From IMG/VR virus record IMGVR_UViG_651053020_000002: 14,432 nucleotides of DNA. One strand, written 5' to 3'. Under the pieces are notes generated by a model. That model was given only the letters and a program-made list of their open reading frames with translations. It was not told the DNA's origin and searched no databases. The DNA is from a virus. Taxonomy: Duplodnaviria > Heunggongvirae > Uroviricota > Caudoviricetes. The translations under genes and the position numbers were made by a program. Of the stretch, positions 2,132-6,862 are shown one piece after another (positions within the stretch are counted from its first letter, which is position 1; each line of letters starts with the position of its first letter).

Positions 2132-2357
2132 TACTCAAAATCCGTTGCAAAAGTAATGAGTCATTTTTCTTGATTACAGGTGTTACCAACTCCCCAACTA
2201 ACTCGGCGTCCTCACGCACTCGCCATAACCGGCCTTGTTTCATGGCCGGTGGACAAAATAAATTCTGCTTAGCATAACGACGCAATGTGGACACACTTGG
2301 AGGATTACTTCTGTATTTTTCAGCAGCCCATTCTTCAAGAGTTAACATTTGAAGCAT
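2112..2357 (-). CDS. xisE: Excisionase (lambda Xis-like winged-helix protein)
   Basis: 81-aa ORF MLQMLTLEEWAAEKYRSNPPSVSTLRRYAKQNLFCPPAMKQGRLWRV... resembles lambda Xis (..LTLQEWNARQ.. pattern); overlaps integrase start by 20 nt, typical xis-int arrangement. Confidence 0.8.
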   Translation of the reverse strand: MLQMLTLEEWAAEKYRSNPPSVSTLRRYAKQNLFCPPAMKQGRLWRVREDAELVGELVTPVIKKNDSLLLQRILSNGSQTA

Positions 2358-2430
2358 ATGCGATCACCTTATTACTACACTAACTGCTTAGTCTCAGCAT
2401 ATCGACCCTGCACGGTCGGTTAGTTTCTCC

Positions 2431-2519
2431 ACAAAACAGAGAAGAGCACCTGTGGCCACAGCTATCAGGATGGGTCGGGTTATTAACCCGTCATCCGGGG
2501 ATACTCTTCTCTGTTTTGT
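2431..2519. repeat. Perfect 16-bp inverted repeat (ACAAAACAGAGAAGAG at 2431-2446 / CTCTTCTCTGTTTTGT at 2504-2519) enclosing inner palindromes (CTGTGGCCACAG 2451-2462; GGGTTATTAACCC about 2476-2488)
   Basis: Read directly from the sequence; the arms are exact reverse complements. Confidence 0.6.
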
Positions 2520-2525
2520 AAAAAG

Positions 2526-2565
2526 GGCGGTACCAGAAAGGACTAAGGAAAAAACTGGTACCGCC
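2526..2565 (-). terminator. Candidate rho-independent terminator for a leftward (minus-strand) transcript: perfect 11-bp GC-rich stem (GGCGGTACCAG / CTGGTACCGCC) with 18-nt loop, followed on the minus strand by CTTTTTAC
   Basis: Stem arms at 2526-2536 and 2555-2565 are exact reverse complements; a T-run follows on the minus strand (plus-strand 2519-2525 GTAAAAAG). Confidence 0.4.
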
Positions 2566-2821
2566 AAGACTACACACAGCATAAAGTTGTGGTGTCGGGT
2601 GCCCCCGGTGCCTGGCGAAGGTTGCACACCAGGCGGGTGGGTATCCACAGAAGGTCGATTGTCAGCCTCAACCTTAACCCGCGTGCGCTGAGCCGCATTC
2701 ACCACAACGCTAAGGATTCTCTCTGGTTGAAAATACTTAGCTGTTATGTGCCTGTCTTTTCACCACTTCAGGCTCGGTGGTATGCTGGAGTTCTCACACA
2801 GCCAGCAAGCAAGGAAACTTA

Positions 2822-3163
2822 ATGAACCAGTTTTATGTTCACGTTCGTCTATTTGAAGACACAGCCGAACAGACCAAAAAATTTGAAGAATTAATGCTTA
2901 ACTTTCTGTACCAGAAAACAGTTAAAGAGTCTGACGATAGCTGCTGCAGACTGATTCCAGAGGGATATATCCTCAAAAGTACAATGAACTGCCAACAAAT
3001 CCTTGATCAAACATTTTCAATTGCTAACAGTGCCGGTGTTGACGCAAATATATTTGTCTGTAAATTTGAACAAAGCGCATGCTTACTTCCGTCTGCTTCC
3101 TTAGTTGGTAACGATTTCGTTCATTACGATCTTACGCCTAAGCCCATCAAGCTCGATTCTTAA
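2822..3163 (+). CDS. ymfI: Uncharacterised prophage protein (113 aa), opposite in orientation to the flanking leftward genes
   Basis: ORF 2777..3163 with probable start at ATG 2822 (MNQFYVHVRLF...), preceded by GGAAACTT; size and position match my recollection of e14 ymfI; no recognisable domain. Confidence 0.6.
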   Translation: MNQFYVHVRLFEDTAEQTKKFEELMLNFLYQKTVKESDDSCCRLIPEGYILKSTMNCQQILDQTFSIANSAGVDANIFVCKFEQSACLLPSASLVGNDFVHYDLTPKPIKLDS

Positions 3164-3409
3164 AGCCTTAACCATTGTGTCGTGATAAACACGGCTCACC
3201 TTCTCTCCATTGCATGGCAGAGGGGTGAGTGTGTTAGCCATGAAATTCATGAACTCGGTTCGACCAGGGGCTTGCGCCCCGCAAGTCTTTAATGCCTGTT
3301 TTGCTAACAAAATGCGGGCCTCAGTGCCTGCATTTGGCTCTATCTGCTGCAAACGTTTAGCGTCTTCCAGCAACAATGCGATCACATGCTTCAAATTCTG
3401 CTCATTCAT
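3101..3409 (-). CDS. ymfJ: Uncharacterised prophage protein (102 aa)
   Basis: 102-aa minus-strand ORF MNEQNLKHVIALLLEDAKRLQQIEPNAGTEARILLAKQ...; convergent with ymfI and overlapping it by 63 nt at the 3' ends. Confidence 0.6.
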   Translation of the reverse strand: MNEQNLKHVIALLLEDAKRLQQIEPNAGTEARILLAKQALKTCGAQAPGRTEFMNFMANTLTPLPCNGEKVSRVYHDTMVKALRIELDGLRRKIVMNEIVTN

Positions 3410-3511
3410 CTATTCTCTCCACTGAAATCATCCGCTAACGAATCATCCCGGTCTTCGTACGTACCGGGCGGGCTACTTCGTGGGCGTCCTGCCTGTTTGT
3501 TGTTTCTCTTG

Positions 3512-3539
3512 GGTACATTATGTATCTCAAAGGTACATT
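3512..3539. promoter_or_regulatory. OL-like operator candidate: GTAC-cored repeat (GGTACATT at 3512-3519 and 3532-3539; TATGTATctcaaagGTACATT fits GTAY-N7-GTAC)
   Basis: Shares core and spacing with the two palindromes in the cohE-croE intergenic region; lies between the cohE terminator and the ymfJ start. Confidence 0.45.
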
Positions 3540-3546
3540 GTCAAGT

Positions 3547-3571
3547 ATAAAAAAACCTGCCGAAGCAGGTT
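3547..3571 (-). terminator. Rho-independent terminator downstream of cohE (minus strand): 7-bp stem ACCTGC(A)/GCAGGT with a UUCG tetraloop followed by a 7-T run
   Basis: Plus-strand A7 (3549-3555) then stem 3554-3560 / 3565-3571 with loop CGAA; on the minus strand this reads hairpin then TTTTTTT; starts 12 nt after the cohE stop. Confidence 0.65.
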
Positions 3572-3583
3572 CATAAACATTGA

Positions 3584-4258
3584 TTAGGCTTTGATTTTGT
3601 ATCTTCTTGGTTTTCCTGAGAAAATCACAGTACCAATTATAGAGCAATTACCGTTGATCTTAATGTAAGGCTCAGGCCAGTTTGGGTTTAACGCTTTGAG
3701 ATAACGCTGTGTCCCATCTTCTATCAACCTTTTGAAGGTGGTTTCACCTGTATCGTGCATCAATGCAATAACGTCGTCACCGTGGCAGGCAGGTACTTCA
3801 GGATCGACAAAAATCATGTCTCCCGGGCGGTACTCATCAATCATTGAATCACCTATTACCCGCAAGATATAAGTCATTTCCCCACAGGGTACAGGGCAGG
3901 GATACGTTTCTGCTGTGCTCAAATCAACCTCAGAATATCCAACTTCTTTCCATGCTCCGGCCTGTACCCATGATATGACAGGGACTAATGTGATTTGTTT
4001 ATTAGTGATTGAAACATCAGGTTTTTTTGTGATGTTCGTTGTCTGGTGTTCTTGATCGAGCCATCCTACAGGCAGGTCGAAACATTTTTCGATGTGTCGT
4101 GCCATGCTGTCACCGATATTTTTAGTAGCACCATCTCCCATAAACCTGCTGGTCTGGGTTGGCTCGCGATCAATCATAGTGGCAAAGGAAGAATTCCCGC
4201 CAACACCATCTCTCAGTTTTCTGGCGTTAGACCGCCGGATGTCATGGATTGTTTTCAT
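3584..4258 (-). CDS. cohE: Prophage CI-like repressor: N-terminal HTH DNA-binding region and C-terminal LexA/S24-type autopeptidase domain
   Basis: 224-aa ORF; C-terminal part ..ILRVIGDSMIDEYRPGDMIFVDPEVPACHGDDVIALMHDTGETTFKRL.. carries the Ser (GDSM) and Lys of S24 peptidases; divergent from a Cro-like gene. Confidence 0.88.
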   Translation of the reverse strand: MKTIHDIRRSNARKLRDGVGGNSSFATMIDREPTQTSRFMGDGATKNIGDSMARHIEKCFDLPVGWLDQEHQTTNITKKPDVSITNKQITLVPVISWVQAGAWKEVGYSEVDLSTAETYPCPVPCGEMTYILRVIGDSMIDEYRPGDMIFVDPEVPACHGDDVIALMHDTGETTFKRLIEDGTQRYLKALNPNWPEPYIKINGNCSIIGTVIFSGKPRRYKIKA

Positions 4259-4273
4259 AACGAAATTAAAACC

Positions 4274-4294
4274 CTTGTACCGTTAAGGTACAAG
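4274..4294. promoter_or_regulatory. Operator candidate O(R)-a: 21-bp palindrome CTTGTACC-GTTAA-GGTACAAG
   Basis: Arms are exact reverse complements; sits just upstream of a -35-like TTGAAG (4299-4304) in the cohE-croE divergent region. Confidence 0.6.
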
Positions 4295-4322
4295 TATCTT
4301 GAAGGTTCATTTCAATCATGTA

Positions 4323-4345
4323 ATATGTACACCGGAGGTACATAT
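4323..4345. promoter_or_regulatory. Operator candidate O(R)-b: 23-bp palindrome ATATGTAC-ACCGGAG-GTACATAT overlapping the putative croE -10 (TAATAT 4321-4326) and the croE ribosome-binding site
   Basis: Arms are exact reverse complements; GTAC cores are 11 bp apart, the same spacing as in O(R)-a. Confidence 0.6.
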
Positions 4346-5494: not shown

Positions 5495-6862
5495 ATGAGC
5501 ACTAAATTAACCGGCTATGTATGGGATGGTTGCGCTGCATCAGGCATGAAGTTATCCAGCGTGGCAATTATGGCCCGCCTGGCTGATTTCAGTAATGACG
5601 AAGGTGTGTGCTGGCCATCAATTGAAACCATTGCCCGTCAGATTGGCGCGGGGATGAGTACCGTCAGAACGGCTATCGCACGGCTGGAAGCAGAAGGCTG
5701 GTTAACGCGTAAGGCGCGTCGCCAGGGTGATGGTTCATCACCCCACTGTGCCGTGGTGGATGAATATCACGAGCACGCCACAGATGCGCTTTACACCACG
5801 ATGCTTACCGGGATGGGGGCGCGACGCCAGCCACTGATGTGGGCCATTACCACCGCCGGGTACAACATTGAGGGGCCGTGCTACGACAAACGGCGGGAAG
5901 TCATCGAGATGCTCAACGGCTCGGTGCCAAACGATGAACTGTTCGGGATCATCTATACCGTTGATGAAGGTGACGACTGGACCGACCCGCAGGTGCTGGA
6001 AAAAGCCAATCCAAATATTGGCGTGTCGGTTTATCGCGAATTTTTGTTAAGTCAGCAGCAGCGTGCGAAAAATAACGCCCGTCTGGCAAACGTCTTTAAA
6101 ACAAAACACCTCAATATCTGGGCGTCGGCGCGTTCGGCGTATTTCAACCTGGTGAGCTGGCAGAGCTGCGAGGATAAATCACTGACCCTTGAGCAGTTCG
6201 AGGGGCAGCCGTGCATTCTGGCCTTTGACCTGGCGCGTAAGCTGGATATGAACAGCATGGCGCGACTTTATACCCGCGAGATTGACGGTAAAACGCATTA
6301 CTACAGTGTGGCCCCGCGTTTCTGGGTACCGTATGACACGGTGTACAGCGTCGAGAAAAATGAAGATCGCCGGACAGCCGAACGCTTTCAGAAATGGGTG
6401 GAAATGGGCGTTCTGACCGTTACCGATGGTGCGGAGGTGGATTATCGCTACATCCTCGAAGAGGCCAAAGCGGCGAACAAAATCAGCCCGGTCAGTGAGT
6501 CACCCATCGACCCCTTCGGGGCGACCGGGCTGTCACATGACCTTGCTGATGAAGACCTGAACCCCGTCACCATCATTCAGAACTACACCAACATGTCCGA
6601 TCCGATGAAAGAGCTGGAAGCGGCGATTGAATCGGGGCGCTTTCATCATGACGGCAATCCCATCATGACCTGGTGTATCGGCAACGTGGTCGGCAAAACC
6701 ATTCCGGGTAACGATGATGTGGTGAAGCCCGTCAAGGAGCAGGCGGAAAACAAAATCGATGGTGCAGTTGCGCTGATTATGGCGGTTGGCAGAGCCATGC
6801 TGTACGAGAAAGAAGACACGCTGTCTGATCACATTGAGTCCTACGGGATCCGCTCGCTTTAA
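5495..6862 (+). CDS. ymfN: Deletion-fusion ORF: N-terminal phage replication-initiator (O-like) HTH region fused in frame to the C-terminal part of a terminase large subunit; I recall this as the e14 ymfN region (oweE/aaaE fragments in later annotation)
   Basis: 455-aa ORF; the N-terminus (..[50 protein letters not shown]..) looks like replication-protein HTH, the remainder (..[41 protein letters not shown]..) looks like terminase large subunit; ribosome-binding site AGAGG upstream. Confidence 0.8.

Follow-up and report, generated by a model that had tools for sequence, protein, structure and literature searches.

The convergent ymfI/ymfJ gene pair of prophage e14: a probable remote GhoS-family protein encoded in the sieB slot

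The cryptic prophage e14 of Escherichia coli K-12 carries two genes, ymfI and ymfJ, that face each other and overlap at their 3' ends. Both are among the uncharacterised genes of this strain, and ymfJ is among its strongest SOS-induced transcripts. We analysed the pair in a stretch of 14,432 nucleotides (nt) from the virus record IMGVR_UViG_651053020_000002, hereafter the window, which is the e14 prophage of the DH1/DH5alpha lineage of E. coli K-12 (positions 2300-3700 match e14 with 100% identity). The results indicate that YmfI is probably a remote GhoS-family protein, as judged from profile searches and a predicted fold, and that its gene lies in the slot held by sieB in phage lambda and prophage Rac. 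From its sequence context, ymfI is most likely an accessory gene that is expressed in the lysogen and silenced by antisense early-left transcription. The gene pair and its overlap are already annotated, and a published list of excludons includes them; measured against the literature that we found, the new elements are the link of YmfI to GhoS, the sieB-slot position, the absence of GhoT, and a modular YmfJ with a co-inherited C-terminal module.

The gene pair and the GhoS-family link of YmfI

The two coding sequences and their overlap are as follows.

2822-3163, plus strand: ymfI, 113 amino acids (aa) from the ATG at 2822; present in the list of open reading frames (ORFs), RefSeq, NCBIfam NF051477 and phrog_8894
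3101-3409, minus strand: ymfJ, 102 aa; present in the ORF list, matched over its full length by phrog_12693; first early-left gene
3101-3163, both strands: 3'-end overlap of ymfI and ymfJ, 63 nt, codons in antisense register

A sequence-only reading of this region had described a convergent pair with a 63-nt 3' overlap, in which ymfJ runs leftward like cohE, xisE and intE while ymfI points the opposite way. Coordinates and strands bear this out: cohE (ymfK), ymfJ, xisE and intE lie on the minus strand, and ymfI alone among these neighbours lies on the plus strand. The same reading had called ymfI AT-rich relative to its neighbours, and this is real but modest. The GC content of ymfI is 38.6% (37.7% at third codon positions), against 46.9% for ymfJ, 44.4% for cohE, 54.2% for the ymfH region and 46.8% for the window. 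The trait is family-wide, the ymfI-type gene averaging 7.5 GC points under its own locus and being lower in 31 of 31 loci.

The comparison covered 43 related loci, taken both from assemblies and from viral contigs, with 24 distinct ymfI coding sequences among them (loci are given below as L numbers and database relatives as P numbers). A convergent overlapping partner was present in all 43, with an overlap of 63, 72 or 42 nt. In the 92 non-overlapping codons of ymfI, variability by codon position was 0.49/0.37/1.25 across the 24 sequences; this pattern indicates purifying selection on the frame outside the overlap, and the third-position excess marks ymfI as a real coding gene. Within the 21 codons of the overlap the corresponding values, by ymfI codon position, were 0.57/0.38/0.62, which indicates that both reading frames are constrained there. 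The conserved overlapping partners and the codon-position statistics together argue that the ORF pair did not arise by chance. A scan of species-representative genomes returned E. coli only, plus one chance match.

A longer YmfI carrying the N-terminal extension MLEFSHSQQGNL, as in database entries of 124/125 aa (e.g. P0004, P0008, P0011 and P0019), was considered and rejected. The upstream ATG (region 2783-2821) is in frame in many relatives, but not in e14 or L005. Since a 4-nt insertion in e14 (AGCA, ~2804-2807) breaks the frame and L005 runs into a stop, the ATG at 2822 is the common start. Some entries among the relatives P0024-P0026 and P0028-P0030 are frameshifted, with a different C-terminal half, and some have an internal deletion that fuses residue ~25 to the tail, which suggests that ymfI is decaying in some prophages.

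YmfI is acidic (isoelectric point, pI, 4.85) and has no membrane segment (highest 19-residue Kyte-Doolittle mean 1.24). It divides into two parts.

2822-3076, plus strand: YmfI core, residues 1-85, a predicted beta-alpha-beta-alpha-beta ferredoxin-like domain of GhoS type
3077-3160, plus strand: YmfI C-terminal tail, residues 86-113, predicted disordered and confined to the e14-type clade; its last 21 codons form the overlap

Fold prediction was confident for the core, while the predicted local distance difference test score (pLDDT) fell below 50 at residues 86-106. GhoS was the top structural match of the model by two methods, and the predicted core is of the GhoS ferredoxin-like type; a BFVD fold search gave weak, unnamed matches only. 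By sequence, the direct matches were NCBIfam NF051477 (YmfI_phage, 161 bits) and phrog_8894, neither of which has an assigned function, and no match was found among PDB sequences.

Remote homology gave YmfI a name that the sequence-only reading, which saw no nameable motif in either protein, had missed. A search of 1.84 billion proteins with a YmfI profile found only 16 relatives, including a group of 92-95 aa at 23-30% identity. Two of its matches, P0157 (E 6.1e-6) and P0160 (E 6.1e-4), score 24.2 bits (model 8-92) and 28.8 bits (model 12-90 of 94) on the Pfam GhoS family PF11080, whose gathering cut-off is 21 bits; four more remote relatives match the family weakly. Conversely, a hidden Markov model (HMM) of the remote group recovers e14 YmfI with 55.7 bits (E 2e-15). 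In a MAFFT alignment GhoS is colinear with the YmfI family, and M25/M31 and L44/L50 are invariant. This transitive profile link through Pfam-passing sequences, combined with the predicted fold, makes it probable that YmfI is a remote GhoS-family protein, and we hold this with good confidence.

GhoS, of the GhoT/GhoS type V system (PF11080, PDB 2LLZ), matches YmfI in size, fold, colinear alignment, acidity and solubility. It differs in being chromosomal, in neighbouring ghoT and in being co-transcribed with its toxin, whereas ymfI is prophage-borne, has no ghoT-like gene in its loci and converges on a phage early gene. YmfI also has an extra 28-residue tail. Ferredoxin-fold nucleases of the Cas2/VapD type scored below GhoS against YmfI; they have no sequence link to it, there is no CRISPR context, and in the GhoS D15 column YmfI has the non-acidic R9.

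Several results weigh against the GhoS placement. YmfI itself matched no Pfam family even at E 10, so the PF11080 gathering score was missed, and, compared directly, its sequence is not significantly similar to that of E. coli GhoS. The remote-group HMM gives E. coli GhoS only ~6 bits, and a profile-profile comparison of YmfI with E. coli GhoS alone fell in the right register with E 0.014 and a probability of 3%, the GhoS homologue set used there being shallow and nearly all from E. coli. The importance of GhoS residues R28 and D15 is taken from PMC4010927, where R28 is described as the one that matters most for cleavage. In MAFFT and hhalign alike, at low identity, R28 aligns with YmfI E22 (H in remote members) and D15 with R9 (E in remote members). 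Ribonuclease activity of YmfI is therefore not to be assumed.

The tail sets the e14-type clade apart. Remote relatives (92-102 aa) stop before it, and the e14-type proteins are longer by ~20 residues, which correspond to the overlap with ymfJ. The LVGNDF motif in the tail is invariant in the 24 distinct sequences, and several tail substitutions are silent in ymfI yet change YmfJ. On these grounds the tail looks functional rather than a read-through accident.

The sieB slot and the architecture of YmfJ

In every context examined, the YmfI-family member is the lone plus-strand gene among minus-strand early-left genes. These contexts comprise prophages of Klebsiella, Salmonella and Enterobacter as well as metagenomic lambdoid phages that carry N, cIII, kil and recT. 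Everywhere but in the short contig L014 the family member overlaps the facing gene at that gene's 3' end; the facing gene follows the repressor or N, and the family member precedes kil or cIII where those exist. In lambda, sieB (plus) abuts N (minus) tail to tail, and in Rac the order is racR, ydaG, ydaF, then facing sieB (4-nt overlap with ydaF), then the small RNA kilS and kilR. The YmfI family thus occupies the sieB slot, facing the first early-left gene.

The resemblance to the sieB loci of lambda, P22 and Rac extends beyond this tail-to-tail arrangement of a rightward gene. The slot lies between the immunity region and kil/cIII in e14, its relatives, Rac and lambda alike, and a KilS-type small RNA and kil stand upstream on the other strand. 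Kil adjoins the slot in the relatives L005, L007, L010-L012 and L017. The likeness does not reach the proteins. SieB is a basic membrane protein of 162-192 aa (Kyte-Doolittle 2.19), whereas YmfI, at 113 aa, is acidic and soluble, has a different fold and shows no sequence relation to it. In L058, a Salmonella prophage, the slot contains a 99-aa YmfI-family member (3807-4106, minus strand). In L059, a Qin/DicB-type prophage, an unrelated 92-aa helical protein (3862-4140, minus strand) faces a YmfJ-like gene from the same slot.

Beside ymfI, the annotated gene ymfH (ORF 2394-2705) overlaps an element at 2517-2738 on the minus strand that gave full-length, sub-threshold Rfam matches to STnc100 (29 bits, E 6e-4) and DicF (28.5 bits, E 1.3e-3). 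In its 3' part this element shares 80% identity with KilS, a verified small RNA of Rac. It has a terminator with a long loop, GGCGGTACCAG...CTGGTACCGCC and then CTTTTT, and the stem, compared with that in Rac, carries compensatory changes. STnc100-like matches stand at the equivalent place in L005, L007 and L010-L012, and NC_000913.3 has no non-coding RNA annotated at the ymfH position. On this sequence evidence, ymfH is probably an unannotated small RNA locus of KilS/DicF type and not a protein gene. The conserved part of ymfH resembles a small two-segment membrane peptide, and ymfH was considered as a GhoT-like toxin partner of ymfI. We rejected this idea: there is no GhoT similarity, a small RNA fits better, and the region is absent beside ymfI in L006 and L008.

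For YmfJ, the remote-homology search and structure prediction that the sequence-only reading had recommended were less informative: by sequence, Pfam and PDB gave chance-level matches only, and the AlphaFold2 model is helical (helices 3-23, 27-42, 50-58 and 73-101) with a mean pLDDT of 66. YmfJ is basic (pI 9.1), opposite in charge to YmfI. In this weak model a helical hairpin (residues 3-42) is joined by a flexible linker to a long, heptad-patterned helix (73-101). Two modules can be distinguished.

3284-3409, minus strand: YmfJ N-terminal module, residues 1-42, a predicted helical hairpin also found on many phage proteins with other C-termini
3104-3226, minus strand: YmfJ C-terminal module (C-module), residues 62-102, core GVxRVYH[DE]TMVKALRIEL, with a heptad-patterned long helix

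The families phrog_30817, phrog_32391 and phrog_2982 match residues 1-42 only, and protein matches span ~40% of the query. The C-module behaves differently: all 24 distinct partners of ymfI carry it, on N-terminal parts of at least four unrelated kinds. It also accompanies the YmfI-proper genes in L011/L012 (14-nt overlap) and L058 (42-nt overlap), where the RVYH[DE]TMV motif lies entirely outside the overlap. A partner without the C-module faces a non-YmfI gene, and remote GhoS-like members (~25% identity) face unrelated partner genes. Outside the overlap, substitutions in the C-module number 15/16/34 by codon position, and this concentration at third positions argues that the module is selected as protein. 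These findings suggest that YmfI and the YmfJ C-module form a functional pair.

Control of the pair, proposed mechanism and competing explanations

The control elements upstream of the two genes are listed here.

3501-3544, minus strand: early-left (PL-type) ymfJ promoter, -35 TTGACA 3544-3539, -10 CATAAT 3522-3517, 16-nt spacer
3521-3537 and 3501-3517: two 17-nt operator copies at the ymfJ promoter, which cover its spacer, its -10 and the expected start
3553-3572, minus strand: intrinsic terminator after cohE from the terminator scan, GAACCTGCTTCGGCAGGTTT then TTTTATACTT, separating cohE from ymfJ
2748-2821, plus strand: 74-nt block 5' of ymfI with a putative extended -10 promoter, an inverted repeat and a Shine-Dalgarno sequence
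2757-2762, 2778-2779 and 2781-2786, plus strand: putative ymfI promoter, -35 TTTTCA, TG and -10 TATGCT, respectively (TGgTATGCT; 18-nt spacer)
2762-2766 and 2777-2781, plus strand: inverted repeat ACCAC/GTGGT in the spacer of the putative promoter, GC-rich, preceded by a T-run
2811-2815, plus strand: Shine-Dalgarno AAGGA of ymfI

The ymfJ promoter is near consensus, with 11/12 matches in a promoter scan. The palindromic operator motif TGTAYC-N4-RGGTACA occurs twice at this promoter and three times between cohE and croE (4276-4342), and none of its copies lies near ymfI; counting both strands, the motif was matched 13 times, where chance would give 0.65. From sequence and position, the five copies are likely the CohE operators OL1-2 and OR1-3. 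The strong promoter with its operators, separated from cohE by a terminator, places ymfJ at the head of an early-left operon repressed by CohE.

Across 21 distinct contexts the 74-nt block upstream of ymfI is identical or almost identical, and its left edge, at ~2748, is sharp. Its pattern TTTCACCAC-N9/10-GTGGTAT(G/C)CT is conserved in the remote loci L010-L012, and in L016 (upstream of 1865) the arms read AGCCAC/GTGGCT, a compensatory change. The hairpin motif TTTCACCAC...GGTGGT is shared with Rac, where it stands upstream of sieB (L013 7577-7602, arms ACCACC/GGTGGT), and is thus a feature of the slot rather than of ymfI. For this reason the idea that it is an RNA target of YmfI on the early-left transcript was considered and rejected. 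Its role could be that of an operator, or of a hairpin in the early-left RNA.

Published expression data bear on both genes. Induction of ymfJ comes late in the SOS response, and YmfJ protein has been detected after induction (PMC11002266); its transcript also rises in hupAB mutants and in dam mutants. Two published SOS data sets place the rise of ymfJ and xisE at log2 4.6-4.8 (~25-fold) and that of ymfI at 1.8-2.0 (~4-fold). The fold changes show no fall in ymfI, in libraries that may not be strand-specific. The separate control that the sequence-only reading had expected of ymfI agrees with these unequal responses and with operators confined to the ymfJ promoter.

A scan of the minus strand between the ymfJ promoter and ymfI found no terminator, and early-left transcription on its way to xisE and intE must therefore, it appears, cross ymfI in antisense. 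ymfI and ymfJ count as overlapping convergent transcription units: their coding sequences share 63 nt, and ExcludonFinder includes the pair among the convergent excludons of 50% or more of 58 MG1655 transcriptomes (PMC12288877). The Rac pair sieB/ydaF is in the same MG1655 list (PMC12288877). The antisense interference that had been suggested from the overlap is thus plausible.

Taken together, these features point to a switch in which the two genes would be expressed in opposite states. In the lysogen, CohE bound to the two operators would keep ymfJ off, and ymfI would be transcribed from a promoter of its own, the conserved, operator-free extended -10 site. Once the SOS response removes CohE, the early-left promoter would fire, YmfJ would be made, and RNA polymerase would traverse the whole of ymfI in antisense en route to xisE and intE. 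We propose opposite expression on the basis of CohE repression of ymfJ and this antisense passage after induction. YmfI in the lysogen would act as an exclusion or immunity factor directed at RNA, by cutting or by binding, or possibly at protein, and the C-terminal coiled-coil helix of YmfJ would be its cognate early-phase partner, neutralising YmfI as Esc does SieB.

There are known parallels to this proposal. RexAB of lambda and BstA with aba are prophage defence genes that have cognate self-immunity and lie beside the repressor; such genes expressed in the lysogen would harm the phage's own lytic growth unless a linked element neutralised them. Lambda and P22 escape their own SieB in a similar way; Esc, the self-protection factor, is encoded within sieB itself, whereas for YmfI the candidate is the facing gene, ymfJ. 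Like RexAB and BstA, ymfI lies beside the immunity region and would be expressed in the lysogen. YmfI has no homology to either (PADLOC gave no match), and its neutralising partner is a candidate only.

We regard an RNA-directed exclusion or immunity factor, expressed in the lysogen, shut off by antisense transcription and neutralised by the C-terminal helix of YmfJ, as the best explanation, and we put it forward tentatively. The exclusion role that the sequence-only reading had suggested is well founded on position, since the ymfI slot is the sieB slot; as to activity, it found no backing in published phenotypes. Further points tell against our explanation. No PADLOC defence-system model matched YmfI, and tblastn found nothing like it in 50,697 sequenced phages. 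A phmmer search with GhoT of 10,176 ORFs (at least 25 aa, all loci) returned none below E 1, and the gene tables of 13 contexts list no small membrane toxin of GhoT/OrtT type. A consensus promoter scan did not call the ymfI site, which has 8/12 matches, and no mapped ymfI transcription start was found in the literature. Finally, the C-module core goes no more than ~12 codons beyond the 63-nt overlap, and in the main clade mere proximity may account for the linkage.

That last point also counts in favour of a rather doubtful alternative without any coupling, in which the slot is a recombination hot spot for reversed cargo, the overlap is compaction, the C-module hitchhikes and YmfI acts alone. 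The slot does hold unrelated cargo (SieB in Rac and lambda, the 92-aa protein in L059), remote GhoS-like members have unrelated partners, and the upstream hairpin common to Rac sieB is a slot feature. Against this alternative, in L011/L012 and L058 the motif, though outside the overlap, still travels with a YmfI-proper gene, and the N-terminal part of the partner was swapped at least four times while the C-module was never parted from ymfI in 24 pairs; the YmfI tail is, moreover, at least as constrained as the YmfJ end. That ymfI and the 3' part of ymfJ are strictly inherited together can also be read at the level of RNA. YmfI would then be a type V-like antidote, an endoribonuclease that cuts a toxic early-left messenger RNA (mRNA), of ymfJ or a downstream gene, to mute leakage in the lysogen, with the co-inherited part of ymfJ as its target. 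GhoS acts by cutting ghoT mRNA (PMC4344625), YmfI has the fold and profile link of that family, and toxic early-left functions are near at hand, namely Kil in the relatives named above and the KilS/DicF-like RNA in e14. We nevertheless consider this unlikely: YmfI does not keep GhoS R28 and D15, beyond the overlap the C-module is selected as protein and not as an RNA site, no locus has a GhoT-like membrane toxin, remote family members have unrelated partners, and YmfJ has no known toxicity.

Less probable still is a two-part prophage system of an undescribed kind, in which a GhoS-fold effector made in the lysogen blocks incoming phage or silences phage RNA and is disarmed by the first early-left protein together with antisense transcription. 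If it did exist, the chromosomal antitoxin GhoS would descend from a prophage cargo family of the sieB slot. At the far end stands the notion that ymfI is non-coding, its rightward transcript being only an antisense RNA to ymfJ or its ORF spurious. AT-richness, the lack of a direct Pfam match and the absence of any phenotype or protein detection in the literature found would suit it. It is highly improbable, however, given the threefold third-position excess of substitutions over 92 codons in 24 sequences, a protein family kept to 23-30% identity in the same genomic slot, the confident fold prediction, and the curated NCBIfam and PHROG families.

If YmfI is counted with GhoS, the one known family of type V antitoxins would widen to prophage genes without GhoT, which bears on how toxin-antitoxin components are recruited. 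The placement makes the function of YmfI, a candidate host-serving prophage gene, cheaply testable. The slot after the first early-left gene appears to be a general cargo site (SieB, GhoS-like proteins and others) worth mining for defence genes, and ymfI/ymfJ offers a clean natural case of convergent-transcription switching between the lysogenic and the induced state.

Neighbouring features of this and related prophages

RefSeq gives the gene order, from left to right, as intE, xisE, ymfH, ymfI, ymfJ, ymfK (cohE) and ymfT (croE). In the window an IS3 copy at 1-1163 interrupts intE (1160-2131) and leaves an integrase of 323 aa, against 375 aa in MG1655. DH1, DH5alpha, NEB 5-alpha and related strains have exactly this IS3/intE junction. 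Because IS3 truncates intE, this copy of e14 probably cannot excise by its own integrase.

A long ORF at 5495-6862 on the plus strand joins an N-terminal helix-turn-helix part to a fragment of a terminase large subunit. Both pieces are incomplete pseudogenes in RefSeq, and the junction is a deletion scar of the defective prophage. In L006, a Salmonella prophage with ymfI, positions 8744-8932 (plus strand) strongly match Rfam isrK (64 bits) and C4 antisense RNA (83 bits), and these matches fall in a gene with Phage_ASH/pRha domains.

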